Positions 4,641-35,548 of a DNA stretch of 64,000 nt are shown here, piece after piece (the first letter of the stretch is position 1; each line of letters opens with the position of its first letter). The notes beneath the pieces are model-generated. The model ran no database searches. It saw only the letters and a program-made list of their open reading frames with translations, and was not told the DNA's origin. The DNA comes from Candidatus Woesearchaeota archaeon (GTDB lineage Archaea > Nanobdellota > Nanobdellia > Woesearchaeales > B72-G16). The DNA is taken from NCBI GenBank assembly GCA_003650545.1, contig QMQO01000003.1, positions 15,103 through 79,102 on the forward strand. The letters run 5' to 3'. Made by a program: the position numbers and the translations under genes.

Positions 4641-6167
4641 TTAAGCAATAACAACTTTCTTTTTTCTGCCATTTGTTGTCTTTATTTTGTACTTTGAATC
4701 ATTACCCTTCCATTTCAATGCAGGAATTGGTTTACTGTAAAGTTCGCTGTTTTCTGCTTCTAATAGTTGCTTTTTAACCTTTTCGCCAATTTTATCAATT
4801 GTAACATTATAACGCTTTTCATATAAATCGTCTGTTAGCTTGTGCATCTTTTCTGCATATTTTTTCAAGTATGGCGCCATTGTTGTAACAATGTTTTCTG
4901 CACCTGGATGAACAGGTTTTGCACCATACTTTGCAATTAAATTACGTAGGATGTGTGGATTGTCAATAATCATACACGGTGTGTAGTGATTCTTGCTATG
5001 AGGCTGGTGACTTCTGATTGCTTTAAAGAAGGGAGACTCTAGAACCTGCTTCAGGCTTTTATTCCTTATATTATCAACAGAAAAATGCACAAACACACAA
5101 GGCTCAACATCGCCTTTGCAGGTTATGTGCAGATAACGTTGACCACCAGCCATACATCCATTGACTAATGTTCCGTCATTCCAAAAATCTCCAATTGCGA
5201 TAGGTTTTGTCTTTCGCCATTTAATGATTGAGTTACGTAGGTGTACACGTTGCTCAGGGGTTTGCATCAGTTCTTTGTCAGGGCCAAGGCCAATTGGGAT
5301 GTACTGGAAGTACCAACCAAATGAGGCTCCTTTTTTGATAAAAAAATCAACAAACTCATCTTTATCAATAATATCTGCGTTTTTTTGGGTACAAGTAACA
5401 CTGATACCAAAAACAACCCCGGCCTCTCTTAGATTATCCATTGCTCGTAGGATGTTCTTAAACATTCCGCTACCTCTTCTTTCGTCAGTCTCTTTTTCCC
5501 ATCCTTCTACACTTATAGCTGGGGCAACATTGCCAAGCTTTGCAAGTTTTTCAGCCATCTTTTTATTGAGTAATGTTCCATTAGTATATGTTAAAAAATA
5601 GCAATCATTATGCTTTTTGAATAGCTTTAGTAACCACGGATTTATGTAAGGCTCACCACCAGAAATCACATAAAAGTAGATCCCCATTTCTTTAGCTTCT
5701 CTTATTATTCTGTCTGTTTCTGAAAATGAGAGATCATCATTCTGTGAATATTCACCAGCATAACAACCAACACACCTAAGATTACAACGCATGGTAGGGC
5801 TTAGAACTATAAGGAATGGAGGCCTAAAACCATATTTTTTTTCAAAATTTTCTCTTTGAAATGAACCTTTAATGCCTGCGTTTGATATTAGATTTTGGAT
5901 GAATTTTTTTCTACAGTTAGAGCTCATCTTTTTAAGCTGCCTATCGCTTAGATAGGCATCAACAAGTTTATTCATGTAATCTCGTCTCTCTTTGAATATT
6001 TTTTCTGGCTCATCTGGGCGTCTTGTACCAGAAGAAATTTTATCTTTTATTAGCTTCCTGATTCCAGCAACTGTTCCTCTTGGAAGATATGGCATAGCTT
6101 GTACAGCTGCTGTGGCCACTGTTTTAGCTGCAGCTGACTTTAGTTTTTGTTGAAGTGTTAGGTTCAT
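4641..6167 (-). CDS. radical SAM enzyme with Cys-containing C-terminal (SPASM-like) extension
   Basis: It has the canonical CxxxCxxC cluster motif (CNLRCVGCYAGEY), a GGEP motif (VISGGEPYINP), and extra conserved Cys in the C-terminal half (NGCMAGG, HITCKGDVEPCVF). 508 aa. An AGGAGG SD precedes the start. Confidence 0.8.
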   Translation of the reverse strand: MNLTLQQKLKSAAAKTVATAAVQAMPYLPRGTVAGIRKLIKDKISSGTRRPDEPEKIFKERRDYMNKLVDAYLSDRQLKKMSSNCRKKFIQNLISNAGIKGSFQRENFEKKYGFRPPFLIVLSPTMRCNLRCVGCYAGEYSQNDDLSFSETDRIIREAKEMGIYFYVISGGEPYINPWLLKLFKKHNDCYFLTYTNGTLLNKKMAEKLAKLGNVAPAISVEGWEKETDERRGSGMFKNILRAMDNLREAGVVFGISVTCTQKNADIIDKDEFVDFFIKKGASFGWYFQYIPIGLGPDKELMQTPEQRVHLRNSIIKWRKTKPIAIGDFWNDGTLVNGCMAGGQRYLHITCKGDVEPCVFVHFSVDNIRNKSLKQVLESPFFKAIRSHQPHSKNHYTPCMIIDNPHILRNLIAKYGAKPVHPGAENIVTTMAPYLKKYAEKMHKLTDDLYEKRYNVTIDKIGEKVKKQLLEAENSELYSKPIPALKWKGNDSKYKIKTTNGRKKKVVIA

Positions 6168-21877: not shown

Positions 21878-22762
21878 CTAAAATTTCTCAATAATATAAA
21901 ACAACTCGTTTTTGACTTTAAATTTGTTATAGTTGTAACCAATAGAATTAAGTAATGTATCAAACCAATGACGTTCCTCTTTTAGCTTTTTGCCTGATAG
22001 AGATTTGATTGGAAAACTTGCAATTATATACTCTGCATTGATAGAAAGCAAAACATCTCTTGTGATGTTCCTTTTAATATTTTCAAGTGTATCGATTGTC
22101 TTAAACATAAAACAAATGTCTGCCTTAATTTTTTTTAGTTTTTTAGTTTCTGCCACTAAATTGAGCTGGACCGAAGTGCCAGTAATTCCTATCAGTTTTA
22201 GGTATTCTTGAATTGTTTTACAATCCTCTTTGTTTAGTTCAGATGTAATAAATATTATGTGCTTGAAGTCAGGGATCATGAAATAAGAAAAAGGGTTTAA
22301 GCCACAGGCTATATCTAATACAACAGTTACTTCAGGAATGGCTTTAAAGATTCTTCTATAGATCTTTTTGTAGTGTGGGAGTCGTTCTTTTGTTGATTTA
22401 TGATGTTCCAGAACATTCTTATGTAATGCTATTAACTTACGATCCTTAAAATCAATATTGATATTTTTGTTTTTATAATTAGTATTAATATAATTTAATA
22501 ATTCTTGAATTGCTTTTTGTTCATTTGACAGCTTAAACATCCCGTAGCTTTTTCTTGCTAATGAGCGGATTGCTTTTAGAAGTCGTTTATATTCTTTGCT
22601 ATGCTTTAGTCTTGCAAAAGATTTTTCTTTATTTATTTTTTCTTTGATTTTTTTATTCTTTTTTAGGTACCTTTGGATCTCTTGTTTTATAAAGGAATCT
22701 TCTATTTTCTTAAGTTCTTTTTTTGATTTAATATCTTCGATTATCTCACTTATTTTGACCAT
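21878..22762 (-). CDS. FmrO-family 16S rRNA (guanine-N7) methyltransferase-like protein (RmtB/ArmA-like)
   Basis: Several blocks are colinear with my recollection of RmtB: SKKELKKIEDSFIKQEI (RmtB SKKYRALCPDTVRRIL), HKSTKERLPHYKKIYRRIF (HASTKERLAELDTLYDFIF), VLDIACGLNPFSY (VLDIACGLNPLAL), SFPIKSLSGKK (SFPTRSLGGRG), and C-terminal ELFYIIEKF (ELIYLIKK). Confidence 0.65.
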   Translation of the reverse strand: MVKISEIIEDIKSKKELKKIEDSFIKQEIQRYLKKNKKIKEKINKEKSFARLKHSKEYKRLLKAIRSLARKSYGMFKLSNEQKAIQELLNYINTNYKNKNINIDFKDRKLIALHKNVLEHHKSTKERLPHYKKIYRRIFKAIPEVTVVLDIACGLNPFSYFMIPDFKHIIFITSELNKEDCKTIQEYLKLIGITGTSVQLNLVAETKKLKKIKADICFMFKTIDTLENIKRNITRDVLLSINAEYIIASFPIKSLSGKKLKEERHWFDTLLNSIGYNYNKFKVKNELFYIIEKF

Positions 22763-23137
22763 AAAAATAGTTAATTTGTGGGCTATTTTAATTTTTGCTT
22801 TTTAATTATCCATCTAAGAAAACCAGATTTTTGAAATCAATAAATAGATTCTTTTTTACATATTTAGTTTATATAATGTTTAACATAATTTGTGTTTATA
22901 AGAGTCTTACATTTTATACACATTTTATACTTTATAACATTTTATACAAAACTTATTAAATAATTTTATAATTTTGATTTTTCACTTAATCTTATTTAAT
23001 TTCTCTTAACTTGACTTTTAACTTAGGTTTTGACTAAGTGTAATAGCTTTCCTACTTTTTTTTAACTTCTACAGAATAGATATATTTTTAAACTATCGAA
23101 AAATAAATAACTCATCATATTCCTGGAGGGTGATAGA

Positions 23138-23701
23138 ATGAAAATTGTTGCTATATCTGGTAGCCCTACAAAGGGTGGAAATACTGAGTATGTTGTAGAT
23201 TTTGCTTTAAACATTGCTAAGAGACGTGGCCTAGATGTAGAGAAGATAGCATTAAGCGAGCTTGAGATTGGTTATTGTGTGGCATGCTATCGTTGCATTG
23301 GAACAAATATGTGTAAAACTCATGAGGATGATATGCAATTTGTTTATGATGTTTTACGTGAAGCTGATGGTATAATATTTGCAAGTCCTGTGATGTTTGG
23401 AGGTGTTACAGGCCAACTAAGGACGATGATGGACAGGTTGCGTGTTCTTAAAAAGAATAATATGCAACTAAAGAATAAGATTGGTGCGGCAATGGTCGTT
23501 TATGAGCGAGGTCATGAGGGGCAAGAGTTGGTTTTACAAGATATACAATCGTTTATGTTAAGTCAAGGAATGATTGTTATTGGTGGTCAAGGTGAGTTTG
23601 GAGGCATAGTAAAAAAACCAGCAGAAGAAGATGAAGATGGCTTGCTAACAGTGGAAAAAACTGTAAACAGAATGTGCGATTTATTAGAGGTTCTACAGTA
23701 A
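23138..23701 (+). CDS. iron-sulfur flavoprotein / NADPH-dependent FMN reductase family
   Basis: It has the flavodoxin-like start MKIVAISGSPTKGGNT, the compact Cys motif CVACYRCIGTNMC (CX2CX2CX5C, as in Isf proteins), and IIFASPVMFGG. A GGAGGGTGA SD is present. Confidence 0.75.
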   Translation: MKIVAISGSPTKGGNTEYVVDFALNIAKRRGLDVEKIALSELEIGYCVACYRCIGTNMCKTHEDDMQFVYDVLREADGIIFASPVMFGGVTGQLRTMMDRLRVLKKNNMQLKNKIGAAMVVYERGHEGQELVLQDIQSFMLSQGMIVIGGQGEFGGIVKKPAEEDEDGLLTVEKTVNRMCDLLEVLQ

Positions 23702-23854
23702 ATAGTAATAGGGTTATAGTAAATATCAGTTCTGTTTTTTTTTCCGAAAAGTTAGGAAAGGGCAAATTCAATCAAGCATAAAGTGCAATAAATGAAATGA
23801 AGTAAAGGCAGTGCGTTGGTAATATTTATATACCACTTTATAATAATAACTCAT

Positions 23855-25211
23855 ATGAAAGTTCAACTAATACAACCAGCAGTAAATAAAAAATATTCAA
23901 GAATTTTGTCTAGCGGAACCATTCAGCCGATTGGATTAATATCATTAGCTACATTTCTACATAAGAATTTACCAGAAATAGATGTTGAAGTTTTCGATGG
24001 AGAGGTAACACCAGAAGAAGAAATTGAAAAGTGTATTGATGGAGATATAGTTGGTGTAGGTTCCACTTTAGTTACTCATGATAATGCTTTAAGAATTGCA
24101 GAAATTGCTAAGGAAAAAGGTGCTACAACTATCATGGGTGGAAAAAATGCAAGCGTATTGGCTGAAAATATTTTAAGAAACAGACCCTATATTGATTATG
24201 TAATTTCTGGTGATGGGGAACTTGCACTATTAGACTTAGTAAAGGGTATTTCTCCACTTTCAATTCCAGGGGTAATATATCGAACTAATAGTATTCCTGT
24301 TAGAAATGATGAACAATTTGTAGACTTTAGAGAAATTCCATTTCCAAATTTAGATTTTACAGACATGTCGAAATATTTTAAGATTTATAGAGCAAAACAC
24401 CCACACAGGGCACACGATGGCATGATTGGAATATATTCTCAAAAAGGTTGTGAATGGAGAGAAAAAACAAGAGGATGTGATTTTTGTGGTAGACTTGAAT
24501 ATAAAACTCAACAAAAAGATCAAAAGGAATTATGGGAATATTATTCAGCACTTAGGTCTTTATATGGTTCTGATATAATCTTTTTTATATGGTTCTGATA
24601 TAATCTTTTGGGATGTTTGTGATAATGTTACTGGAAATAGAGAATGGTTTGATAGTTTTGCTGCAGAAAAACCATCTGATTTTGATAATGAATTGAAATT
24701 TTACGTTAGAGCTGATAGATTACCACTAGAGGTAGTTAAAGCATTACGAAGGATTGGTACAAGTATTGTTTTTGTTGGTTTTGAAAGTGGAAGTGATGAA
24801 ATATTGCGTGGCATCGGAAAAGGTATAACCACTGAACAGAACTTTCAAGCGTCAAGAAGGCTTGGGCAGGAGGGTATTAAAGTTGAAGCTTCATTTGTAG
24901 TTGGATTACCCGGAGAAACAGAGGAATCTTTGGAAAGAACTTACCAACATGCAAGAGAAATTGCAGATGTCTGTGATGTAGAAATGTGTTTTGCGAATAT
25001 AATAATGCCTGTTCCTGGCTCAAAAATATATGAAAGACTTGTTAATTCGCCGTATGGATCACAATATCGATTATCAGATAACCCTGATCTAGAAGAAATC
25101 ACACGAGCTTATTTGCAAGGATTCACTCACGTTGGTTTTGAAACATTACAGGAATTTGGAAAACGATTAGAACAAGTTGGAAGATTAAGAGGAAGTCATG
25201 GGTATATCTAA
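23855..25211 (+). pseudogene. B12-binding-domain radical SAM gene disrupted by a 25-bp tandem duplication (frameshift)
   Basis: The N-terminal cobalamin-binding-like domain (MKVQLIQPA...PIGLISLATFL...IVGVGS...IMGG) and a Cys cluster (GCEWREKTRGCDFCG) lie in ORF 23816..24598. The radical-SAM core continues in ORF 24693..25211 (VFVGFESGSDEILR...). Deleting one 25-bp copy joins them in frame: ...SLYGSDIIFWDVCDNVTGNREWFDSFAAEKPSDFDNELKFYVRADR.... Confidence 0.75.
24561..24610. repeat. 25-bp tandem duplication inside the radical SAM gene
   Basis: Copy 1 (24561-24585) reads tatatggttctgatataatcttttt and copy 2 (24586-24610) reads tatatggttctgatataatcttttg. The 25 extra bases shift the frame by +1 and create a TGA at 24596-24598. 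Confidence 0.9.
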
Positions 25212-25275
25212 ATGCCCTGTCCTTTTATTTTAAGGTCTTTTTCTCAATAGAATAAAATGATCGTTCACTCAGGCG

Positions 25276-25316
25276 AGACTCAGCACTAAAGTGCTGGGCA
25301 GCCTTGGGTATTGTAG
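25276..25316. repeat. 41-bp perfect direct repeat, copy 1 (agactcagcactaaagtgctgggcagccttgggtattgtag)
   Basis: Identical to 26825-26865. It contains the hairpin cagcac-taaa-gtgctg. It is embedded in a GC-rich spacer, which is unusual for this AT-rich genome. Confidence 0.9.
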
Positions 25317-25445
25317 GTAGAGCGACCGGCAGTATGACGCAGGATTTTCACACATATTAATTTCTTTGGGCTGGGAGGAAATGTAGTAACTATCATGTAA
25401 TAAATAACTAAAAGGTTTATAAATGATTGTAATAATTATACTTAT

Positions 25446-26108
25446 ATGTTAGAAAGAATAGTAAATAGTTTCGGTAGATTGAGAAAATTACAAAGTATTG
25501 GTAGTTACGAAAGGTCAATGATTGAATATGGCTTAAATGAAGTAAATCAACATTGCGATAGTAGTAATACTTTGGTTCTTGCTAAAAGGATTTCTTTATT
25601 TTCAAAAGATGTTGATGACTACATTAGAAGAAGAGCAAGAACAGATTTACCTGCTTCACAATTTGTGGGCATTCCAGAAAGAAGAGAAGAATTTGTAGAA
25701 ATTGGTGGAGTTCTGGTTTATGGAAATAATGGCTTGATTGAAGTTCGATATTCTTCGCTAGATGTAGAAAATGTTAGGGAACTAGTTGAATTGCCAACAT
25801 CCAATTATCCTTGTGAATTTGCAGTTCCAAGAAAAACACGGGATGATTTCTATGGCGGAAGGCCATATAAAACTTACATAGAAACATCTACTGAATATCG
25901 TGTAAATCCCGAAGATTTTAATCAAGGAGATATAGTTATCGATTGGCATACACATCCTGATGAGGGAGTACCGAGTTTAGAAGATGTTAATTCAATGTTA
26001 AAGTTAGATGGTCTTATAGGGAATAAAAAATTGTATTCTGTTATTTATGTTCCTAGAGATGATCAATCTTATTGGTTCAAGATAGAAAAAGCCCAGCCCA
26101 AAGAGTAA
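25446..26108 (+). CDS. JAB/MPN (JAMM-like) metalloprotease-domain protein
   Basis: The C-terminal motif DWHTHPDEGVPSLEDVNSM has the HxH...S..D arrangement of JAMM/MPN+ domains, with one residue fewer between H and S than canonical. The N-terminal 160 aa match no recognised family. Confidence 0.5.
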   Translation: MLERIVNSFGRLRKLQSIGSYERSMIEYGLNEVNQHCDSSNTLVLAKRISLFSKDVDDYIRRRARTDLPASQFVGIPERREEFVEIGGVLVYGNNGLIEVRYSSLDVENVRELVELPTSNYPCEFAVPRKTRDDFYGGRPYKTYIETSTEYRVNPEDFNQGDIVIDWHTHPDEGVPSLEDVNSMLKLDGLIGNKKLYSVIYVPRDDQSYWFKIEKAQPKE

Positions 26109-26149
26109 AGTTTTTCTAATTTAGTGAAAATCCGAGTAATATTGCACAT

Positions 26150-26167
26150 AACATATGCGATCGCTGG
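26150..26167. repeat. palindrome-centred motif aacatatGCGATCGCtgg
   Basis: A near-identical copy, aacatccGCGATCGCtgt, is at 27846-27863. A degenerate copy, aacatcgcacttgctgtt, is at 26801-18 inside the 7-bp inverted repeat cctaaca/tgttagg. Each lies at the 5' end of a GC-rich inter-cassette spacer. Confidence 0.8.
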
Positions 26168-26286
26168 TTAACCGAACCGACCTCTACGAAGTGGGGGTAG
26201 TTAAGGCACAGGACAGATTAAAAACCAAAAGATTTTTATATAATTAAATAATCTTATTTAATATTAAATAATTTTGGGTGATTGAT

Positions 26287-26508
26287 ATGGTTTTAAAAAC
26301 ATTTAATGTGCAAGAAGATGTGTATAATAAATTTTCCCGTTTTTGTAAGAATCTTGGAATAAGTATGAGTAAACAAATAGAATTCTTTATGGAATCTTTT
26401 ATAGAAAATGAACCTGAAGCTAAGAAACAATATCTGGAGAAACTTGAAAAAATTAGAAGAGGAAAATTTGTTAAAGTTAAAAGTTTCGCTGATAGATATG
26501 GGTTGTAA
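26287..26508 (+). CDS. ribbon-helix-helix (CopG-like) antitoxin
   Basis: MVLKTFNVQEDVYNKFSRFCKNLGISMSKQIEFFMESFI shows the beta-strand/helix/helix RHH pattern. It ends 2 bp before the RelE-like gene. The ATG at 26287 is preceded by GGGTGA. Confidence 0.55.
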   Translation: MVLKTFNVQEDVYNKFSRFCKNLGISMSKQIEFFMESFIENEPEAKKQYLEKLEKIRRGKFVKVKSFADRYGL

Positions 26509-26510
26509 TT

Positions 26511-26774
26511 ATGAGTTATGATCTAGCAATTTCTGAAAAAGTAGATAAAAAGTTTAGTAAGTTGAGTAAAAAGAATAAAAAACAATTAAAGATAATTAAC
26601 AAGAAAATTCAAGAAATTCTTACTAACCCATATCACTTTAAACCGTTGCGTGGTGATTTAAAAGGAGCAAGAAGAATTCACATAGATAAATCTTTTGTTT
26701 TAGTATATGAAATAGATGAAAAAAATAAACTTGTAAAAATTTTAGATTATGATCATCATGATAACATATACTAA
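26511..26774 (+). CDS. relE: RelE/ParE-family type II toxin
   Basis: 87 aa with ...ILTNPYHFKPLRGDLKGARRIHIDKSFVLVYEIDEKNKLVKILDYDHHDNIY, the typical RelE/YoeB-like core (L.G.L.G..R.r.g.yR..Y.I....v.i......H...Y). Confidence 0.75.
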   Translation: MSYDLAISEKVDKKFSKLSKKNKKQLKIINKKIQEILTNPYHFKPLRGDLKGARRIHIDKSFVLVYEIDEKNKLVKILDYDHHDNIY

Positions 26775-26824
26775 GGTCTGTCCGAGCATTAATTGCGCCT
26801 AACATCGCACTTGCTGTTAGGGCA

Positions 26825-26865
26825 AGACTCAGCACTAAAGTGCTGGGCAGCCTTGGGTATTGTAG
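26825..26865. repeat. 41-bp perfect direct repeat, copy 2
   Basis: Identical to 25276-25316. Here it sits in the centre of an imperfect palindrome of about 85 bp (left arm cgcctaacatcgcacttgc, right arm gtgcaacgatgccgaaggcg). Confidence 0.9.
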
Positions 26866-26945
26866 TGCAACGATGCCGAAGGCGAAAAGAGTTTTCGCAA
26901 TCGCCATTATTCACAGAACGAAGTGATACATCAAAGACAAGAATC

Positions 26946-26963
26946 AAGGGGACACACTCAAAC
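26946..26963. repeat. left arm of an inverted repeat (aaggggacacactcaaac; perfect 15-bp core ggggacacactcaaa)
   Basis: The reverse complement of 27809-27826 is aagggggacacactcaaa. Aligned by codon, the arms differ by only two substitutions over 21 bp. Both arms encode I-(K/R)-G-T-H-S in open frames on opposite strands. Confidence 0.85.
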
Positions 26964-26983
26964 AAAAAACAAGAATCGGGGGC

Positions 26984-27313
26984 TTAATGATATCGGTTTT
27001 TATATTCAGGATATTGTTCAAATAACTCTTTTTGTAATTGTTCATTTGAATTTTTAGAATTTTTGAGTATCCTCTTCACTTTTATTGAAAACCAGAATGA
27101 AGCAAATATCATAATTGCTCCTAAAATTATTACCACGCATATTGTATATAAAGTAATTCCATTAATGGCGATTATAATTGCTACAACAGAAAGCAGTAAA
27201 GCAATTAGAGAAATAGCAAAAGATAGCATAAATGTCGCAGTATTAGATAAAAAATCTCTGTTTGATTGATCAAATTGAATCCAAAAAAGTTTATCTTGTT
27301 TTGTTCTCTTCAT
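26984..27313 (-). CDS. hypothetical two-TM membrane protein
   Basis: 109 aa with two long hydrophobic helices. Its start overlaps the stop of the upstream fragment ORF (ATGA overlap). Confidence 0.35.
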   Translation of the reverse strand: MKRTKQDKLFWIQFDQSNRDFLSNTATFMLSFAISLIALLLSVVAIIIAINGITLYTICVVIILGAIMIFASFWFSIKVKRILKNSKNSNEQLQKELFEQYPEYKNRYH

Positions 27314-27798
27314 TTAATACAATCCTCAATTATTTTAATTTCTTTACTTTTTAGATTGTATAAGTCATAAAGAATAATATTTATCTGTTCAATAATCGCA
27401 TTTATTTGTCTTAATAATAAATTTTTTTCATGTTTTAAATCAGTTGAATTATATCTCTTTTTTAACTCGATTACATTGGAAACCATATTCACAATTTTAT
27501 CATGTTTATCTTTTTCAGAAGAATCATTAAAATTAATCCTTCTAATTGGTATTTCTCCAGCGAATTGCTTATTTGTGGCATAGAAGCCGCCACTCAGAAA
27601 AATGCTAGTTTTACTTATGAAAAATGATGCAATTGGACTGTTTAGAATTGCTATGAAATAAAATGGGTTTTCTTTCACTTCATCTTTTAGTATTATTCCA
27701 TTTGCACCCACATTATCAAGGCAATATTCACCTTGATTATCAATTGCTGAAACTGTCTTTTTAACGACATGAGGAATCAATATCTTTTTTAAATGCAC
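27310..27798 (-). pseudogene. C-terminal fragment of a type IIG/Eco57I-like restriction-modification enzyme (TaqI-like target-recognition domain)
   Basis: ...NPFYFIAILNSPIASFFISKTSIFLSGGFYATNKQFAGEIPIRRINF... followed by a helical tail (IEQINIILYDLYNLKSKEI) matches the pattern of the C-terminal specificity domain of N6-adenine methyltransferase/restriction-modification fusion enzymes. Only 162 codons remain, it has a GTG start, and no methyltransferase domain lies upstream. Confidence 0.5.
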
Positions 27799-27808
27799 GA
27801 AGTGCCTT

Positions 27809-27826
27809 TTTGAGTGTGTCCCCCTT
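27809..27826. repeat. right arm of the inverted repeat (tttgagtgtgtccccctt)
   Basis: See 26946-26963. It lies in the open frame just upstream of the restriction-modification-fragment ORF (…KKIRGTHSKRHF-VHLKK…). Confidence 0.85.
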
Positions 27827-27845
27827 ATCTTTTTTATTCTAAATT

Positions 27846-27863
27846 AACATCCGCGATCGCTGT
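27846..27863. repeat. palindrome-centred motif aacatccGCGATCGCtgt
   Basis: Second copy of the motif at 26150-26167. The sequence after it (to about 27925) aligns loosely with the spacer at 26168-26215. Confidence 0.8.
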
Positions 27864-27983
27864 TGTGCGAAGTAAGCCGCAGTTCGTGAGGGCTTATACG
27901 GGCCAGGTGAGGATTTATTTGTGAGGATTCAAGCTTTTTGAATGGGCTGAGGAGACTGTTTTTCTAATTTTTTTACTTCAGTA

Positions 27984-28101
27984 GCACCACCACTGGCGCC
28001 GGCGAGACAAATCAAAATCCCGATGAGCTTGCGAGTCGAGATTTTGATTTGGCGAGTAGGATTTGCAAAGCAAATCCGTCGGCTGCCTGTTGTGGTGGTG
28101 C
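27984..28101 (+). ncRNA. unclassified GC-rich Y-shaped structured element (candidate ncRNA or DNA structure)
   Basis: Helices read directly from the sequence. P1 pairs 27984-27993 gcaccaccac with 28092-28101 gtggtggtgc (10 bp). P1b pairs 27995-28003 with 28078-28087 (9 bp, including one G-U and one bulged U). P2 pairs 28008-28019 caaatcaaaatc with 28040-28051 gattttgatttg (12 bp, 20-nt loop). P3 pairs 28059-28066 ggatttgc with 28070-28077 gcaaatcc (8 bp, aaa loop). The strand assignment is weak and rests only on the single G-U pair. Confidence 0.35.
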
Positions 28102-28364
28102 ATATAATTCTCCATAAAAAAACAGCAATCCGAATGTACGCATAACTATTTCTTATAACTAGACTAGATTGTTGAGTTTTTTTGAAATAAATACCAAAAG
28201 ATATATATATTAAAGCTGCCAAATAAAAATTATATAAAAAATTAGTTGGATATAAAGATTTAAAGATTCCAAATGTTATTCAGATTTGAAAATTATAAAA
28301 AAAGTTGATACAATAGAGAATCTAAAATTTAATCAGCATAACTTGTTGAGGTGGTATTTTTCTG

Positions 28365-28601
28365 ATGACAGGGCCATTACAATCAAAAAAACTTCTAAGA
28401 GGAGCTAAAGTATATATCCACTTTAAAGATGAGTATGCTAAGATTGAGCACATCGATGTTGAACATCCTAAATTAAATGAAATTATTAAAGATAAGGAAA
28501 GTACGTATGCAGCTGGCAAGAAAGGCGGATTTTTTCTAGGGCTAAAGAAACCTATGTTAGAAAGGTTGAGGAAAATCTACAAGGTTAAATCTAAAGGTTA
28601 A
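28365..28601 (+). CDS. hypothetical small basic protein
   Basis: 78-aa ORF with a GAGGTGG SD about 12 nt upstream. No family recognised. Confidence 0.35.
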   Translation: MTGPLQSKKLLRGAKVYIHFKDEYAKIEHIDVEHPKLNEIIKDKESTYAAGKKGGFFLGLKKPMLERLRKIYKVKSKG

Positions 28602-28777
28602 AAGAATAAAATATAAATTGGAAAATTGTAAATAAATGTTCGGAATTAAATCTTCTTAAGACAAAAATTTAAATAACCCATCACACCATCGTTTTACCAT
28701 CTTCTGGGAATAACTATATCTTTATATACAAAATCACTAATCCAAATATAATAATCCAAATATAAAAGAGGTGCTAG

Positions 28778-30547
28778 ATGGTTGAGGTTTTTGCTAATGT
28801 ATTTGTACAGATGGGGATAATCATTATTGTTGCGACTCTTGGCGGCTATCTCTCTAGGCTTCTCAAACAACCTCTGATTCCACTTTATATCCTTATTGGA
28901 GTTCTGTTAGGACCAGAGTTAGGTTCACGTCTCGGTGCTATGCTAGGCATTAATTTTGCAGGCCTAATTACAAATCAAGCATTAATCCAAGATCTAGCGA
29001 TGTTTGGTATTGCTTTCTTGTTGTTCATAGTAGGCCTTGAGATGAACATAAAAAAGCTAAAAAACATCGGTCATATATCAATTATAGGAACACCAATTCA
29101 GGTTGCACTGATGTTCATATTTGGCTTTGTTATTACAACTGCTTTTCTTGGCAAATTCTTTCCTGGCACAAGGGACGCAATCTATATAGGATTAGTGCTG
29201 GCGTTCAGTAGCACTGTTGTGGTGATAAAGCTATTAGCAGATAGGCGTGAGCTAGATACATTACATGGGAGAATCGCTATTGGAATATTAATTGTGCAGG
29301 ATATCATAGCTATTTTAGCCATAACATTCTTGTCAGCGATTGGTGTTACATCTATTGTTAAACTCATACTTACATTATTAGGGGCTGTAGCGTTGATCGT
29401 GATAGCGTTGTTATTGGGTAAGTATGTGTTTCCGAAGATATTCAATTTCGCAGCTAAAAGTGAAGAGCTTCTGCTTTTAAGCTCTTTAGCAGTGCTATTT
29501 GTGTTTGTGTTTTTGTTTAATGCTATTGGTTTCTCAATAGCAATTGGTGCCTTTGTGGCAGGTCTAGCATTAGCTAATCTACCTTATAACTACGAAGTCA
29601 TTGGCAAGGTTAAATCAATAAAAGATTTTTTTGCTACAATATTTTTTGTGGCATTAGGTATGCAGTTTTCTTTAATAGGTATTAATACCTCGGTCTGGAT
29701 TCCGCTATTGATACTGTTTGTAATGATCGTGATAGCGAAACCAATAATATTTATGTTTCTTGGAGCTTTTTTTGGATATACCGAGCGTACTCTATTTTTA
29801 TTTTCTTTTTCACTTGGACAGGTTTCAGAATTCTCGCTCATCATAGTCAGCCTAGGTGTGCTAGAACTAAAACAGGCTTCAACCGCGTTATTATCCGTCA
29901 CTATTGTTCTTGCTATAGCCACAATTGCATTCACTTCTTACTTCATCAAGTTTGAAGATAAGATCTACAGATTCCTGAAGCCACGGTTTAAGATATTTAG
30001 CAGGACTACGGCAGACTTAGAGTATTTGCCTGCTAAATATGAATATGATATTATACAGATTGGCTATGATAGGATTGGCTATAGCATCCTAAAAACATTG
30101 CAAGATAAAAAAGATAGGGTTTTAATATGTGATTTTAATCCTGAGATAATTAAAAAACTCATCGTACAAAAGATTCCTTGTATTTATGGTGACGCGGCAG
30201 ATGAAGAGATACTAAAAAGGCTCCATCTAAATAAAGCCAAACTAGTGATATCAACTTCGCCGAATTTCGATGATAATGTAATAATCATAAGAAAAACAAA
30301 AGCAGCTAATAAGAGAGCACATGTTTTTGTAACTGCAAACACAGTTGATGAAGCACTAGAACTTTATAGGCATGGTGCTGATTATGTGATCATACCACAT
30401 TTTCTCGGTGGTGAAAAAGTTTCTTCAATATTAGAGCAAGCATCAAAGAATTACAGAAAGTTTAGATCATTAAAAAAAGAGCATGTAGCACATCTTAAAG
30501 AAAGATTAAAAATGGGGCATCGAAACACACTAAAGAATCATCGTTAA
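28778..30547 (+). CDS. CPA2-family cation:proton antiporter with C-terminal RCK/TrkA-N domain (Kef-type)
   Basis: An N-terminal polytopic membrane domain of about 390 aa shows typical Na+/H+-exchanger helices (LGPELG, VQDIIAIL). A C-terminal Rossmann region (IIQIGYDRIGYSILKTL...VLICDFNPE...IYGDAADEEIL) follows. Confidence 0.85.
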   Translation: MVEVFANVFVQMGIIIIVATLGGYLSRLLKQPLIPLYILIGVLLGPELGSRLGAMLGINFAGLITNQALIQDLAMFGIAFLLFIVGLEMNIKKLKNIGHISIIGTPIQVALMFIFGFVITTAFLGKFFPGTRDAIYIGLVLAFSSTVVVIKLLADRRELDTLHGRIAIGILIVQDIIAILAITFLSAIGVTSIVKLILTLLGAVALIVIALLLGKYVFPKIFNFAAKSEELLLLSSLAVLFVFVFLFNAIGFSIAIGAFVAGLALANLPYNYEVIGKVKSIKDFFATIFFVALGMQFSLIGINTSVWIPLLILFVMIVIAKPIIFMFLGAFFGYTERTLFLFSFSLGQVSEFSLIIVSLGVLELKQASTALLSVTIVLAIATIAFTSYFIKFEDKIYRFLKPRFKIFSRTTADLEYLPAKYEYDIIQIGYDRIGYSILKTLQDKKDRVLICDFNPEIIKKLIVQKIPCIYGDAADEEILKRLHLNKAKLVISTSPNFDDNVIIIRKTKAANKRAHVFVTANTVDEALELYRHGADYVIIPHFLGGEKVSSILEQASKNYRKFRSLKKEHVAHLKERLKMGHRNTLKNHR

Positions 30548-30559
30548 AGCGTATTAAAA

Positions 30560-30895
30560 ATGGACAAACAACTGTTAAAGCAACTAAAACAAAAAGTAAA
30601 ATTGCTTCCTGCTGTTACTAGGATTGGTAAGAATGGTTTAACTGATGCTGTTGTAAAGGAGATCATAAAACAATTAAACAAAAAGAAGCTTGTTAAGGTA
30701 AAACTGTTAAAAGCAGCGTTTGTGCAAACAGATAAAAAAGATCTAGTCGAAGACATTCTAAAAAAAACAAAAGCAGTGCTTGTTGATGTTACGGGATCTA
30801 ATGTTACTATTACAAAACGTGAAAAAAAGACAACATCTTATTTTAAAGCACACATGGTTTTAATTAATTCAAAGAAAAAAACAAAAAGAATATAA
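30560..30895 (+). CDS. YhbY/CRM-domain RNA-binding protein
   Basis: LKQKVKLLPAVTRIGKNGLTDAVVKEIIKQLNKKKLVKVKLL matches the hallmark of the CRS1/YhbY fold (IGKNGLT...L..ELIKVK). Confidence 0.7.
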   Translation: MDKQLLKQLKQKVKLLPAVTRIGKNGLTDAVVKEIIKQLNKKKLVKVKLLKAAFVQTDKKDLVEDILKKTKAVLVDVTGSNVTITKREKKTTSYFKAHMVLINSKKKTKRI

Positions 30896-30918
30896 AGCTA
30901 GAAAATATCAAATGAGAT

Positions 30919-32343
30919 ATGGCTGAAATAAAAAAAGAGGAAAAAAAAGAAGATAACACTAGTTTGGAGAAGTTTGGTTTTGAGAAAGAAGTATGGGAAA
31001 TAGCAAGATTTGCTAAGCCTGTCGAAACTGGCTTCCCAAAATCAGTTGCAACTTATCATTTTATTAACGAGTCTTTTACTCTGTCCATAGAAGAAACCTA
31101 TTTTTGGCTACTGAATTACATACAAACAGATGAAGGTTTTTACGAGGCTCATAAGATTACAGACCTTTTTGCTGCTGCAGAGCAGAGCTCTTTGTGGGGG
31201 ACGATATCGCAACGTCTAAGCTATCAGGAAGATCGTGTTTCTAATTATCTTGCTGTAATCAGCAAACAGATAAAAGAGTTGTTTCAGATCGTACGCGAGT
31301 TAAGAATTATAGACGAAAGATTGAACTATTATGATCTAAGTGCTAAGGGACACCTCGCAGCAGAAATCGCGTTAAAGGGAATCTGGATTGACATGGTTGA
31401 GGGGGCAAGCAAAAATCCAAGCTCAGTCTATGGTCTGGCGCAGCAGGTTGGTTTTGCAACCTTGCCTGATTTATTCTACGCAACGTTCCCAAAAAGTAAA
31501 GAAGATGTTGACGCGGTTGTGGACAAACTAGAGTTTAATAAAAAAGTCAAGGAAGTACTAAAGAGAAAATTGTTTTCATTTTTATTATGGAAAGAAGAAA
31601 CATACAAAGAGCTTAAAGCACGAAAAAGTTTCCAGCTAAAATTTTTAAGGCAGTTTTATGATGTAATGAAACTGTACATGTCCTGGATAAAGCCACATTT
31701 AAGGCATGTAAAACGTCTAATGGCAAAAGAAAAATTAAAAGAAGAAGCTGTGATAGCAGCTTTTGAGACAACTGCAATCGAGATTGAGACATTGCTAAGG
31801 CAACCGCAGCCTAACAAGCAGTTTCACCCTTGTGTATTAATCAATCTGAAATATACAACAAAACCTTCGCTAGGTTATCAGCAGGTTGAGAGCTATCAGC
31901 GCGGGCCTATACATGTAGGCAGAGTAGATGTATGGATACATGCTTATGCTTGGAGTGATGAAGAGTTAGAGAACTACAAGAAATATAAGAATGAAGAAGA
32001 TCTCGATTTATTAAAGTCTGTCTCTGCATCTGTTGAAGCTGCAATGGATGCTCTTGGAGACGATTTGAAGCGTTACTTGAAGGAGGCTGGTGAAGAGATA
32101 GAAGAACCAATAAAAGAAGAAGAGAAAATTAAACTCCCAACTATTCTAGATCCATTTATATCGGTTGTTAAAGGGTTTGGTGAACTCGGCAGTGTGTTCG
32201 GGTTCAGAATACCTGAGAAGAAGAAAGGGCCTAGTAAATGGGAGCTAGACAAACAGAGGAAAGACGCAGAGAATAACGCTAAGAAAGTTGCATGGCGTAC
32301 ATACAAAAACTATAAGAAAGCGCATAAGATGATAGCATGGTGA
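30919..32343 (+). CDS. hypothetical 474-aa protein (no recognisable family)
   Basis: A long ORF with ordinary composition, predicted helix-rich with an acidic/lysine-rich C-terminus. No catalytic or nucleotide-binding motif was spotted. Confidence 0.5.
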   Translation: MAEIKKEEKKEDNTSLEKFGFEKEVWEIARFAKPVETGFPKSVATYHFINESFTLSIEETYFWLLNYIQTDEGFYEAHKITDLFAAAEQSSLWGTISQRLSYQEDRVSNYLAVISKQIKELFQIVRELRIIDERLNYYDLSAKGHLAAEIALKGIWIDMVEGASKNPSSVYGLAQQVGFATLPDLFYATFPKSKEDVDAVVDKLEFNKKVKEVLKRKLFSFLLWKEETYKELKARKSFQLKFLRQFYDVMKLYMSWIKPHLRHVKRLMAKEKLKEEAVIAAFETTAIEIETLLRQPQPNKQFHPCVLINLKYTTKPSLGYQQVESYQRGPIHVGRVDVWIHAYAWSDEELENYKKYKNEEDLDLLKSVSASVEAAMDALGDDLKRYLKEAGEEIEEPIKEEEKIKLPTILDPFISVVKGFGELGSVFGFRIPEKKKGPSKWELDKQRKDAENNAKKVAWRTYKNYKKAHKMIAW

Positions 32344-32553
32344 TATTAGCTGTAATAGCTGTAATATGATTCTTAGAATACTTAGAAAATACTTAGAATA
32401 TGATACTGTTAATGTTTTTTTTAGATTTTGCGCAAAAATATTGAGCATGAATTTGCTTTATGCTCTATTCTTGAAGTTTTGAAAAGAGAAAAGAATTTTG
32501 AAAACCAAAATCAGCCTTAAAAAAAATCAAAAGGAAAAGAAAAATTAAATAAT

Positions 32554-33111
32554 CTAATAATAGTCAGATAAGAACGAAGGAATATCTAATTTATCATCGG
32601 GTAATCTGATGTTAGAACGCAAAATATCGATAAGATATATTTTCTCCTTTGGACCTTCTTTTAGTTTAGGTAGTCCGATCTCTTCACCAAATTTAACAAG
32701 ATACCCATTTGGTTTGCTCGAAAGGCTACAAGTCACCCCTATTTGTTGTCTCACTTCAACATTTTCAAATTTTGCAAAAATCGCCTTGCTAACATACTCT
32801 TTCATAACGCTTTCAACATGTTGTGCAATTGTTTTGTTAATCTGTAAAACATCATCGTACTGTACTTTATCTATACAGCTTATTAGCTCTTTATACATTC
32901 TTAAAACCGAGGTTCGATTAAAAAGCTTATCTCTGTATTCTTTTCTAAGATGCCATTGTGCACCACAAAGAATAACATATATCTCGCCAAACATCTCAAC
33001 TGGCCTTGCTAATCGCCAATTGATAATTGAAAGGCTATTTTCGACTTCATTACCAATAATTTTTCCAAGGTTATGTTTAATAGACTTATTCATTATCCAA
33101 AAATAATTCAT
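32554..33111 (-). CDS. hypothetical protein
   Basis: 185-aa ORF. The antisense ORF 32609..33106 is Ser/Leu-rich and looks like a shadow. No family recognised. Confidence 0.4.
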   Translation of the reverse strand: MNYFWIMNKSIKHNLGKIIGNEVENSLSIINWRLARPVEMFGEIYVILCGAQWHLRKEYRDKLFNRTSVLRMYKELISCIDKVQYDDVLQINKTIAQHVESVMKEYVSKAIFAKFENVEVRQQIGVTCSLSSKPNGYLVKFGEEIGLPKLKEGPKEKIYLIDILRSNIRLPDDKLDIPSFLSDYY

Positions 33112-33268
33112 CCATCTGTCTGTCTGTTAAAGGCTGATTGATTAATTCTTTAAAACCATCTTTACTTTTCTTTTTTAATTTTATTTCTTCTAATCCAAGT
33201 TCTTCTTCTGTTATGCTCATAATCAAAAAACCCAATAGGTTCTTTATAAAACTTTCGGTTTTCATCAC
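33086..33268 (-). CDS. hypothetical small protein
   Basis: 60-aa ORF overlapping the start of the downstream gene. No family recognised. Confidence 0.25.
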   Translation of the reverse strand: MMKTESFIKNLLGFLIMSITEEELGLEEIKLKKKSKDGFKELINQPLTDRQMDELFLDNE

Positions 33269-33350
33269 TGTCCAGAAGTCCTAATGCCTTAAAAAATATG
33301 AATAATATTTAAATACCATATTTAAATACCTTCAATTATTATTACTAAAA

Positions 33351-34127
33351 ATGGCACAATTGTCTGTCTATCTAAAAAGAGAGCTGATTAAGTATATAAA
33401 GGAAGAACTAGATCGTGGGGTTAAACTTTCAAAAATTCAAGAAGCCTTACTTAAAGGTGGCCATAATCGCAATCTTATAGATGAAGTGATCTATGATCTA
33501 AAAAAACATAACTTTGACATTGTTAAAGCATTAAGAGAGCCCCTAAGACTTAATCCTGAGGCAGAAGAGCTTTATTTTGATATTGTCGAATCCCTTGTTC
33601 GCTACATTGAACAACAACTTGAGCAGGGCTCAACAATTACTGAGGTAAAAGAGACCTTGCTTGATTTTGGTCATGCAGAAGAAACAATTAACAAAGCAAT
33701 AGACCGTGTTCTAGCTGCAAAAGAAAAAGCATCTCGCAGAATTAAGCTTAGTAGTGTAGCTTTATCAGCAATCATCCTGTTCGCAATTATGTTCACATTC
33801 AGTGCAATCACTCTAGAACCTTTTTCTTTAGTTGTAATTGCATTCTTCCCTTCAATACTAATGTTGGCTGTTGGCGCATTTTTTCGCGGGGAAAAAAATT
33901 TATTATTAGTGATGCCATTCTTATTAGCAATAATCTTTTTCCTACTTGGGAGCAAGGTAGGTGTGATAGCAAATATGGAAGTCGGACCATTGACATTTTA
34001 TAATCTAGTATTCAGCCTGGTGATAGCTGCTGTTATCTATGATAAAACAAAAAAAAGAAAAAGGCAATTAAAACTTCGTTGGAGCAAAAAAGAACAGGCA
34101 TTTACTCCAAAATTAGTAAAATTATAA
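33351..34127 (+). CDS. membrane protein with two N-terminal copies of a ~35-aa helical module
   Basis: The internal repeat is ELIKYIKEELDRGVKLSKIQEALLKGGHNRNLIDEVI and SLVRYIEQQLEQGSTITEVKETLLDFGHAEETINKAI. About 4 TM helices follow. Confidence 0.5.
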   Translation: MAQLSVYLKRELIKYIKEELDRGVKLSKIQEALLKGGHNRNLIDEVIYDLKKHNFDIVKALREPLRLNPEAEELYFDIVESLVRYIEQQLEQGSTITEVKETLLDFGHAEETINKAIDRVLAAKEKASRRIKLSSVALSAIILFAIMFTFSAITLEPFSLVVIAFFPSILMLAVGAFFRGEKNLLLVMPFLLAIIFFLLGSKVGVIANMEVGPLTFYNLVFSLVIAAVIYDKTKKRKRQLKLRWSKKEQAFTPKLVKL

Positions 34128-34237
34128 ATTACAACTCAGGAATAATAAAAAATCAAAGAATAAAAATCTATTGGAAAATTATAAATATCAGCGATACATT
34201 TTCCAGTTAAAGTGATATTAAAGTGATAGGTGTATAA

Positions 34238-34558
34238 ATGATAACACTTGGGGGAAATATAGAGCTTACAGGTTTTCGTGAGCTAGATAAAGGAGAACTT
34301 TCTGTAGTTAAGAAGATGGTTGGTAATTATGTTAAGCGCTTTAATGATCTTGCTAGTAATTTTGAGAAGTTAAAGCTAACAATGAGAGCCATAAGCCAAA
34401 CTCCGAAGTCAGAGATTTATGAGATCAATGCTCAAGTCATTGACAATGGTCAAACAATAAATGCAGAACATTCAGATAGAAATTTGTTTTTTTGTATTGA
34501 TCGCGTCCTGAAAAAGATCGAGAATAGTTTTGATGTTATTAAGGGAAAAAAGTTATAA
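34238..34558 (+). CDS. HPF/RaiA-like (ribosome hibernation factor-like) protein, tentative
   Basis: 106 aa. The pattern is colinear with bacterial HPF/YfiA: MITLGGNIELTGF..L...V.....KRF (compare MQLNITGNNVEIT..LR..V..KF.KL) and YEINAQVIDNGQTINAEHSDRNLFFCIDRVLKKIENSF (compare SDATLHVNGGEIHASAEGQDMYAAIDGLIDKLARQL). A TAGGTG SD is present. Confidence 0.4.
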   Translation: MITLGGNIELTGFRELDKGELSVVKKMVGNYVKRFNDLASNFEKLKLTMRAISQTPKSEIYEINAQVIDNGQTINAEHSDRNLFFCIDRVLKKIENSFDVIKGKKL

Positions 34559-34654
34559 AAATTGGTAGTTATTTGAGATAGTTATTTGAAAATTCTTCAA
34601 TATTATGCTGGTTAATCTGAAATACTATTAATCTGAAATACATTAATTGAAATA

Positions 34655-35548
34655 CTATTTAATCACAGCCTTCAAACTTCTAATCGCAACCTCTATCTGT
34701 TTAGAGGTTGGCTCTTTCGTTGTAATATACTGTACCAACTTACCTGGCCACGCCAATGCTCTAAAAAACCAGTTCTTTCGATATTTGCCTGATAAACGCA
34801 AAAATTCATAAGAAAATCCTGCTATCAGCGGCAATAACGCAACTCTAGATCCTAATTTTAACCAAAAGTTCCAATCCTTTGGTATCAGAATGTAGAGCAG
34901 AATACTCACAAAAATCACAACTAACCAAAAACTGGATCCACACATCGGGTGTTTGGTGGAATACTTTTTAACATTCTTAACAGTAAGATTCTTGCCATCT
35001 TGATAGCAATGTACTGTTTTATGCTCTGCACCATGATAACGGAATAGTTGCTGCACATCCTTCATCAGGGATATAAAAAAAAGATAAAGTATAAATATCG
35101 CAATCTTTACAAAGCCTTCAATTAGGTTGAATGTAACATTTCCAACCCGTGTCACAAATCGATCAAATAGAACAGCAAACCACAATGGCAAGAACTTAAA
35201 CAAGAGAAGAGCTAATCCTATAGCAAGAATAAATGTAAAGATTATGACAATTGTGTTTATTCCCTTGTTTTTTTCTCTTTTGCGATGTTTCTTTTTTTCT
35301 TCTTCTATCTGCTGGTTAGAGCTCCATGTCAAAGCCTTGCTACCAAGCACTATAGTATCAACAAGCATAACAAGACCGCGCCAAATTGGGATTTTAGCAG
35401 AAAATTTTCTTTCTTTTATTTTTTTGACTAATACCTTAATTTTATTATTAGGTAGACGTACTGCTATAGCATACTTATTTTTGGTGCGCATTAGAACTCC
35501 TTCTATCACTGCTTGTCCGCCTGCTGCCAATATCTCTTTTTTTGACAT
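34655..35548 (-). CDS. DUF1385-family membrane protein (YqhQ-like)
   Basis: It has the hallmark N-terminus GGQAVIEGVLMR, plus HGAEHK and several TM helices. Confidence 0.8.
   Translation of the reverse strand: MSKKEILAAGGQAVIEGVLMRTKNKYAIAVRLPNNKIKVLVKKIKERKFSAKIPIWRGLVMLVDTIVLGSKALTWSSNQQIEEEKKKHRKREKNKGINTIVIIFTFILAIGLALLLFKFLPLWFAVLFDRFVTRVGNVTFNLIEGFVKIAIFILYLFFISLMKDVQQLFRYHGAEHKTVHCYQDGKNLTVKNVKKYSTKHPMCGSSFWLVVIFVSILLYILIPKDWNFWLKLGSRVALLPLIAGFSYEFLRLSGKYRKNWFFRALAWPGKLVQYITTKEPTSKQIEVAIRSLKAVIK

Follow-up and report, generated by a model that had tools for sequence, protein, structure and literature searches.

IS200/IS605-family relics as the probable source of a 41-bp direct repeat in an archaeal cassette array

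Insertion sequences (ISs) of the IS200/IS605 family encode a Y1 HUH transposase and move as single strands by a "peel-and-paste" mechanism. These elements (IS200, IS608, ISDra2) and their transposase-less derivatives, the palindrome-associated transposable elements (PATEs) and miniature inverted-repeat transposable elements (MITEs) known for example from Haloquadratum (PMC3119063), are among the closest known counterparts of the direct repeat described here. The repeat lies in a 64,000-nt stretch (the window) of contig C3 from an archaeal metagenome-assembled genome (MAG) of 1.64 Mb, with 36% G+C and 133 contigs. Its two copies had been read as the borders of one module consisting of a JAB/MPN gene, a ribbon-helix-helix (RHH) antitoxin gene and a RelE toxin gene. 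We propose instead, with a probability of roughly 78%, that the repeats are two relics of an IS200/IS605-family element, situated in the same orientation at cassette junctions, rather than a site built for excision. The comparisons below demonstrate the sequence identities, the family to which the transposase belongs, the boundaries and target sites of the IS, and the conservation and covariation of the junction modules.

The repeat and its match to insertion sequence ends

The 41-mer AGACTCAGCACTAAAGTGCTGGGCAGCCTTGGGTATTGTAG occurs exactly at 25276-25316 and 26825-26865, as originally predicted, with 0 such matches expected by chance (100 shuffles). Identity can be extended to 45 nt (25272-25316 and 26821-26865) with a single mismatch, G/A at 25275/26824, which marks the left edge of identity; beyond the 45 nt, the flanks of the two copies are unrelated. 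The repeat forms a hairpin with the TAAA loop noted before, but its stem (CTCAGCAC paired with GTGCTGGG) comprises 8 bp, one G-T pair included, rather than 6 bp. Fold z-scores are unremarkable for both 45-mers (-1.5 and -1.1) and for the region around copy 1 (-0.8). The 216-nt region around copy 2 reaches z = -3.6, folding as separate local hairpins, a preference that speaks against the imperfect palindrome of about 85 bp proposed for this site.

A whole-genome search revealed a third copy on contig C2 (91782-91824, minus strand), identical to copy 2 over 43 nt and located 90 nt from the contig end. Scanning public metagenome contigs, we found the hairpin five times on the 10.9-kb contig L027 (Ga0180301_10004353). 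The original prediction had reserved simple local duplication for the case that no additional copies existed anywhere; given the third, partial copy on C2 and the five hairpins on L027, this case does not apply. Three of the five lie in a unit of ~160 nt that closely matches the end of C2 (megablast, ~97% identity over 130-158 bp) and begins at the very base where C2 breaks off, and the other two belong to a longer structure, GGCAAGA-CCCAGCAC-TAAA-GTGCTGGG-TATTAA-TCTTGCC (DNA fold -13.1 kcal/mol, z = -5.4). Between one long hairpin and one ~160-nt unit, L027 contains a 154-aa open reading frame (ORF) for an IS200-type Y1 transposase (PF01797, Y1_Tnp; E 1.8e-28). The intact IS measures 696 bp, and its end hairpins are identical 20-mers (CCCAGCAC-TAAA-GTGCTGGG) in direct orientation, 631 nt apart. 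Same-strand subterminal hairpins at both ends, the lack of terminal inverted repeats and the Y1 HUH enzyme place this full-length relative in the IS200/IS605 family; the window itself holds no transposase ORF.

Contig C2 ends inside the left, transposase-proximal end (LE) of this IS, within the IS promoter region and at the same base at which L027 breaks. The L027 DNA is also represented by L156, from the European Nucleotide Archive (ENA) assembly that also holds the window's contig, outside this bin. The L027/L156 transposase has 132 close homologues, all with PF01797 and mostly on contigs of ~1 kb, as expected because repeats break assemblies. Relatives of the IS show CC......-TAAA-......GG hairpins at both ends.

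The only Y1 sequence assembled in the window's own genome is a fragment with an in-frame TGA at the start of contig C27 (3-257, minus strand), 42% identical to the L027 enzyme; it is flanked by different hairpins and belongs to a second IS200-type element. Among 400 genomes of the order, exact hairpin copies were found in only one (G065) besides the window's own. In G065, the 18-mer CAGCACTAAAGTGCTGGG occurs three times (L151, 635-652; L153, 656-673; L155, minus strand) with ~0.01 chance matches expected, inside a multi-copy 297-aa transposase-like ORF and with unrelated flanks.

IS boundaries were derived from six contexts of an 80%-identical transposase and from four further, more distant relatives. 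On the tnpA coding strand, with ^ marking a junction, the element reads ..(C)GTTGCACT^ACA.ATA...GGCTG-hairpin ... tnpA ... hairpin-CTTGCC-CGAGC....TTTTATT^. Junctions have the form ..TTGCACT^LE....RE^, where RE is the right, transposase-distal end, and no target duplication is seen across the contexts; like other members of the family, the element inserts 3' of a short specific target without duplicating it. In L172 the RE abuts AAAAATCAA, a hairpin and ..CTAACAGG, and in L167, L169 and L171 the LE abuts AGTGCAACG, a hairpin and AAAAATCAAAGT. Joined together, the L172 flank and the L169/L171 flanks rebuild an uninterrupted conserved element that is split exactly at TTGATTTTT^AGTGCAACG. Nine of the 13 distinct LE junctions of the subfamily lie at AG[T/C]GCAACG and two, those of L161 and window copy 1, at AG..GAGCGACCG; a 61%-identical IS uses a different, T-rich target. 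L172 also carries, at 1-270, two IS copies head to tail with the RE/LE junction ..CGTTTTATT^ACATATATAGGGCTG.., the one such case seen, which is either a tandem dimer or the assembled circle junction of an IS200-type element.

Alignment with these ends revealed that the window copies combine both. They match the RE over GGCAAGAC and the hairpin (27 of 28 nt; the RE continues.CAGCAC..) and the LE over the hairpin followed by CAGCCTTGGGTATTGTAG, ..GTGCTGGGCAGCCTTGGGTATTGTAG (36 of 36 nt). Within the repeat, the left 9 nt plus hairpin are RE-like, and the hairpin plus the right 16 nt are LE-like. Because the end hairpins of the IS are identical, any deletion between them yields exactly the repeat of the window. 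The 41-mer is a chimera of two subterminal IS200/IS605 ends and can no longer be read as an attC site, an att site or a target-site duplication; the broader prediction of a hairpin-forming, DNA-level signature of mobility or recombination in a cassette-like neighbourhood is borne out. The copies are laid out as follows:

25251-25314, minus strand: copy 1, a complete 64-nt mini-element without transposase, by alignment to full IS ends
25315-25341, plus strand: flank of copy 1, AG GTAGAGCGACCGG..., a second recurrent target context of the IS family
26821-26863, minus strand: copy 2, the same IS relic without RE tail (GGCAAGA, hairpin 26828-26847, LE linker to ..GTATTGT)

Read on the plus strand, copy 1 comprises the RE tail (25251-25271), the outer-stem half GGCGAGA (25272-25278), the hairpin (25279-25298) and the LE linker CAGCCTTGGGTATTGT (25299-25314); the active (top) strand of the element is the minus strand. 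We consider it complete because its left flank resembles RE termini: the 21 nt AATAAAATGATCGTTCACTCA reach a score of 9 against the RE termini of three related ISs (random mean -4.2, sd 3.0; p ~5e-5). The left flank of copy 2 scores -3, with no similarity to an RE tail. On the right, the GAGCGACCG motif flanking copy 1 is also found directly beside the LE of a related full-length IS, in L161. The right ends of the two window copies, ..GTATTGT^AG, are genuine LE/target junctions. As in PATEs and MITEs, copy 1 keeps both parental termini without tnpA (its LE linker ends ..TATTGT^AG), and copy 2 does so in part. The two end hairpins and the several dispersed copies by which such derivatives show mobility are not found: each copy is a single fused hairpin, and the genome holds just two relics and one IS end. 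The window copies are best termed relics rather than MITEs of proven mobility.

Junction modules and cassettes around the relics

The two relics stand in an array of small cassettes separated by conserved junction modules, in one of which (26790-26900) copy 2 takes the place of the variable middle hairpin. The parts of the array in the window are:

25342-26133, plus strand: JAB cassette, bracketed by the 10-bp inverted repeat GGATTTTCAC (25342-25351) and GTGAAAATCC (26124-26133)
25446-26108, plus strand: Prok-JAB (JAB/MPN) ORF (E 5.5e-6; HxH..S..D motif visible)
26148-26172, plus strand: junction core at the boundary between the JAB and toxin-antitoxin cassettes, ATAACAT-ATGCGATCGCTG-GTTAAC
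26211-26783, plus strand: toxin-antitoxin cassette, bracketed by GGACAGA (26211-26217) and TCTGTCC (26777-26783), a 7-bp repeat that is weak alone
26278/26287-26508, plus strand: antitoxin-like ORF of 73-76 aa, called antitoxin from its position only
26511-26774, plus strand: ParE/RelE/YafQ-family toxin ORF (E 6.5e-10 and 4e-22)
26790-26822, plus strand: module start and core, TAATTGCGCC then CCTAACA-N10-TGTTAGG, a dif/attC-like 7-bp inverted repeat
26864-26900, plus strand: 3' domain of the module, AGTGCAACG and a GCC-GAA-GGC hairpin, with degenerate closing strand
26916-26952, plus strand: second conserved spacer module, CAGAACGAAGTGATACATCAAAGACAAGAATCAAGGGG, leading into the next bracket
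26943-27828, minus strand: next cassette, in opposite orientation, with a 109-aa membrane ORF and a 162-aa TaqI_C-domain fragment

In an alignment of junction modules, the core ATTGA-NNN-TAACA ... TGTTA is followed first by a variable hairpin and next by a helix that surrounds (T)AGTGCAACG and a C-GAA-G hairpin; the module ends in ..CAAAGT. The core is either short (24-28 nt) or encloses an insert of ~55 nt, and the enclosing helix shows six pairs with compensatory changes. AGTGCAACG is the conserved unpaired motif of the module and at the same time the preferred target of the IS family, with insertion at T^AGTGCAACG. The module is common in Woesearchaeota and Pacearchaeota, where it stands between cassettes; exact copies of the 21-mer TAGTGCAACGATGCCGAAGGC are present on more than 120 contigs from DPANN MAGs, frequently at the contig end. 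The window module follows this order except for the relic in place of its variable hairpin, and its start with the core (26790-26822, the core itself at 26798-26822) folds as DNA with -5.1 kcal/mol (z = -2.7). The attC-like GTTAGG core noted near copy 2 is indeed present (GCCTAAC...GTTAGGG, 26797-26822), but it is this separate conserved junction core, outside the repeat.

Since the genes beside the modules show no preferred orientation (46 against 43 upstream, 55 against 42 downstream), the module is not an mRNA leader or trailer. In 46 of 82 cases, the sequence just after the module is matched by a perfect reverse complement, 11 nt or longer, located 0.3-3 kb downstream; the direct and the reversed control gave seven of 82 each. 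The bracket partner typically ends exactly at the next ATTGA. Cassettes in DPANN arrays (L160, L028-L147 and window 25342-27828) thus have their own perfect inverted-repeat brackets of 10-31 bp, whose outer ends abut modules. In circular or single-stranded DNA, the module would be enclosed by the bracket in one large hairpin. We also considered the module itself as a MITE with terminal inverted repeats and rejected this model: the two flanks of a given module do not pair with each other (no match in 56 of 73), and the right flank pairs with the left flank of the next module.

This architecture bears on the claim that the repeats bracket one module of three genes. Three ORFs do lie between them, and the JAB and RelE families were confirmed; "RHH" was not, as the antitoxin-like ORF (26278/26287-26508) has no Pfam, NCBIfam or PDB match, a PDB sequence search included. 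The JAB gene and the toxin-antitoxin pair form separate cassettes, each with its own inverted-repeat bracket and with a junction core between them, and the three genes are not one repeat-defined unit. A TATA-like sequence (AAAGGTTTATAAAT) lies inside the JAB cassette at ~25411-25424. The core at 26148-26172 is preceded by ATATTGCAC and followed by the hairpin ACCTCTAC-GAA-GTGGGGGT. The bracket of the cassette at 26943-27828 is a 20-nt inverted repeat, 15 nt of it perfect (26943-26962 and 27809-27828), with another junction core after the cassette (27844-27865). In L160, a JAB homologue with 67% identity is enclosed by a 31-bp perfect inverted repeat (3912-3942 and 4680-4710) between two junction modules, and the following two genes have brackets of 13 and 12 bp. 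The contexts of JAB homologues displayed cassette architecture and yielded no donor or empty site. The ENA contig L166 comes from the same sample and, with 100% identity across 8.6 kb, gives no further information on the population.

Several further features of the array were observed. The 162-aa ORF (27310-27798, minus strand) encodes only a TaqI_C target-recognition domain (E 4.7e-10), without methylase or nuclease part, and is co-oriented with the membrane ORF of its cassette. The spacer CAGAACGAAGTGATACATCAAAGACAAGAATCAAGGGG recurs with 86-92% identity in several other families of the order, always just before a cassette bracket; in the window, a partial repeat (ACAAGAATCGGGGGC, 26969-26983) follows it. 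After the core at 27844-27865, the sequence CGAAGTAAGCCGCAGTTCGTGAG ... GAGGATTTATTTGTGAG (27866-27935) is shared with the IS LE flank in L161, a contig of another sample, which suggests a second type of junction module. On C2 (region 22218-35000), a full junction module (25318-25458) is separated by 2.3 kb from a gene for a XerA-type recombinase (NF040815, 222 bits), and partial modules at 25587-25671 and 33823-33917 are found next to a type III restriction helicase; this region is probably the main cassette array of the genome.

The surroundings of the array also deserve description. Left of copy 1, a gene for a B12-binding radical SAM protein is broken into two ORFs (23816-24598 and 24693-25211) exactly at a perfect 25-bp tandem duplication (TTTATATGGTTCTGATATAATCTTT x2, 24559-24608) and looks like a recent frameshift pseudogene. 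A GC-rich multi-helix element (27984-28101) contains a 16-nt hairpin with 94% complementarity (28008-28023 and 28036-28051); neither Rfam nor the other loci of the analysis contain a match to the element. A homologue of the FmrO-family 16S rRNA methyltransferases (21878-22762, minus strand; E 1.8e-22) is encoded just outside the cassette region.

Origin of the relics and competing explanations

How could such relics have formed and come to enclose two cassettes? Recombination or replication slippage between the end hairpins of the IS would delete tnpA and leave a single hairpin between an RE-side and an LE-side flank, a product identical with the 45-mer of the window. The IS subfamily inserts 3' of ..TTGCACT on its top strand, which corresponds to the position between T and AGTGCAACG on the cassette strand. 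Because this target is the conserved motif of the junction modules, relics would accumulate at cassette junctions and in the same orientation. Copy 1 would be a mini-element that borders a small cassette array on the left and copy 2 a relic inside the module after the RelE cassette, the JAB and antitoxin-RelE genes being bracketed because of where the targets lie. The two relics may go back to two insertions, each followed by a hairpin-to-hairpin deletion, to movement of the mini-element, or to one recombination that inserted 1,549 bp. For the recombination there is some support: the left flank of copy 1 and the right flank of copy 2 together make up a canonical "mini-IS at its target", and the mismatch lies at the edge of identity. 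The 1,549-bp segment could now be lost through the 45-bp homology, an event against which the enclosed toxin-antitoxin pair would select.

Four points weigh against this explanation. No intact copy or cognate transposase is assembled in the window's own genome, which contains only the LE on C2 and the C27 fragment. The target of copy 1 (..CTACCT^) fits the consensus in its last bases only. Copy 2 lacks the RE tail and ~40 nt of the expected adjoining module, so that an extra deletion is needed. Finally, IS200/IS605 transposases are not known to act on single-hairpin elements, so that a pair of identical relics would require two independent insertions with the same deletion, one recombination, or a putative ability of the mini-element to move.

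Two alternatives keep some of the evidence on their side. The copies could be the ends of a single 1.6-kb non-autonomous transposon of IS200/IS605 type, with the JAB and toxin-antitoxin genes as cargo and Y1 acting in trans. On the minus strand, copy 2 would then serve as the LE with a canonical target/LE junction (CGTTGCACT^ACAATACC..), copy 1 offers the RE-like terminus ..TTTTATT^, the two hairpins share one strand, a requirement of the family, and toxin-antitoxin cassettes are also found between hairpin copies in L027. However, each copy has LE-type as well as RE-type flanks and so looks like an entire element that has collapsed, not like a single end. The interior resembles ordinary array content with the core at 26148-26172 and a separate bracket for each cassette, the core at 26798-26821 would lie inside the transposon and the 3' half of its module outside, and no second copy of the 1.5-kb unit was found in the whole genome or in the JAB homologue contexts. 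We regard such a composite transposon as unlikely.

An equally small chance is given to the capture of a circle that carried the JAB gene, the toxin-antitoxin pair, the core and one relic and that recombined with a resident relic, leaving hybrids similar to attL and attR. The recombination could be homologous or due to a Xer-type or other recombinase of the array. Such a crossover would explain why copy 1's left flank, the RE tail, and copy 2's right flank (AGTGCAACG...) complement each other exactly, the sole mismatch at the left edge of identity is expected for a crossover inside the repeat, and the cassette architecture fits circular intermediates. On the other hand, the same relic is already needed in both parents, covariation of the helix enclosing AGTGCAACG argues against a crossover at the right edge of the repeat, and no recombinase gene is present on the contig of the window.

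An attachment site of a tyrosine recombinase or an integron attC site is very improbable. It had been suggested by a Phage_integrase-family ORF 290 nt from the third copy on C2, by the RYYYAAC..GTTRRR-like pair next to copy 2, and by the attC clusters published for this archaeal phylum (PMC9668308). The integrase idea was dropped once the third copy proved to be an IS LE, base for base as in L027, on a contig that breaks within the IS promoter region, and the ORF remained far below the XerA and IntI cut-offs; a junction module lies between it and the third copy, and the other hairpin copies on L027 have no adjoining integrase. On C3, no PF00589 protein, tyrosine recombinase or integrase of any kind was found. 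No integrase lies between or beside the window copies, nor is the repeat the 3' part of a target gene: ARAGORN found no tRNA or tmRNA in the window, which excludes a tRNA-type att target, and no Rfam family reached its gathering threshold there, a permissive search of 25100-28300 giving chance-level matches only.

The attC reading was rejected as well, its defining features being absent. An attC site is an imperfect palindrome of 55-141 nt that is bounded by R'' (RYYYAAC) and R' (GTTRRRY) and has L boxes and extrahelical bases; the 41-mer has no R''/R' boxes. The attC-like core beside copy 2 (GCCTAAC-N12-GTTAGGG, 26-28 nt) matches R' at six of seven positions and lies outside the repeat, and junction cores span just 24-28 nt. 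There is no IntI with attI nearby, the best recombinase of the genome being XerA-type and below the IntI cut-off. In place of co-oriented, mostly promoterless cassettes, we find orientations of ~50:50 and TATA-like boxes inside cassettes. None of the sequences in the supplements of the archaeal-integron paper matched the module (PMC9668308).

A plain local duplication or conserved small-RNA element, to which two hairpin-forming copies 1.5 kb apart and a weak Acido-Lenti-1-like match (E 2.6) might point, can practically be dismissed in view of the transposase-linked copies elsewhere (further contigs and a second assembly), the unrelated flanks beyond 45 nt, the lack of an Rfam family at threshold and the unremarkable fold z-scores.

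Taken together, the two IS relics explain away the tempting "excisable JAB-toxin-antitoxin module" as IS200/IS605 debris, and two relics with two cassettes should be annotated instead of a single mobile unit. As the relic of a mobile element the repeat is ordinary; it is the surrounding cassette array that is unusual. The analysis documents an IS200-type family of Woesearchaeota and Pacearchaeota with a long, well-defined target, identifies this target as the most conserved motif of the modules that separate accessory-gene cassettes in ultra-small archaea, and presents a case in which an IS with identical end hairpins would be prone to collapse, leaving a relic with one hairpin. The ISs are also a source of homology that could reshuffle or delete cassettes.

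A further-reaching idea, which we put forward as a tentative one of low likelihood, is that an IS200/IS605 lineage has specialised on T^AGTGCAACG of folded junction modules in an integron-like, IntI-less cassette system of DPANN archaea, with relic hairpins tolerated or functional and the 45-bp identity driving capture, loss and shuffling of cassettes. If so, the preference would be indirect evidence that the modules are extruded as single strands in vivo, because these transposases act only on single-stranded DNA. If the modules do work as folded single strands, the ISs would be natural probes of that state.

Comparison with known systems

With IS200/IS605 elements, the family described here shares a full-length copy with a PF01797 Y1 HUH transposase, same-strand direct hairpins, the lack of terminal inverted repeats and target duplication, insertion 3' of a short specific sequence, and head-to-tail RE^LE junctions. 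It differs in its target, a 7-9-nt motif inside a folded cassette-junction module, and in its DPANN host. Like PATEs and MITEs, the window copies are short non-autonomous derivatives scattered in intergenic DNA, but they are single-hairpin LE/RE chimeras of 43-64 nt and not the usual two-hairpin derivatives.

The repetitive extragenic palindromes (REPs) and bacterial interspersed mosaic elements (BIMEs) with their REP-associated tyrosine transposases (RAYTs, TnpA-REP) are similar in that short dispersed intergenic hairpins are related to the recognition site of a Y1 enzyme and have a conserved ..GTAG near their edge. In our repeat, GTAG lies 14 nt from the stem and not adjacent to it, and the genome has just three copies. 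The transposase is of IS200 type with its own LE and RE, whereas RAYTs are domesticated single-copy enzymes flanked by inverted REPs.

The array resembles attC arrays and clusters of attC sites lacking integron-integrases (CALINs), the archaeal ones included (Ghaly et al. 2022, PMC9668308), in its small accessory cassettes (toxin-antitoxin, restriction-modification fragments) and in its folded separators, variable in sequence and conserved in structure, with an AAC...GTT core. In contrast to those systems, the 41-mer is not the separating site, the cassettes have their own promoters, both orientations and inverted-repeat brackets of 10-31 bp, IntI is absent, and the core of 24-28 nt is followed by a three-hairpin module.

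Mobile elements specialised on a repeated, hairpin-forming intergenic site are known from IS1397 and ISKpn1, which target REPs, and from the group IIC-attC introns (PMC3001079); such specialisation makes copies accumulate at corresponding positions, all oriented alike. The family described here parallels them with a different target element and with the single-strand chemistry of Y1 HUH transposases.

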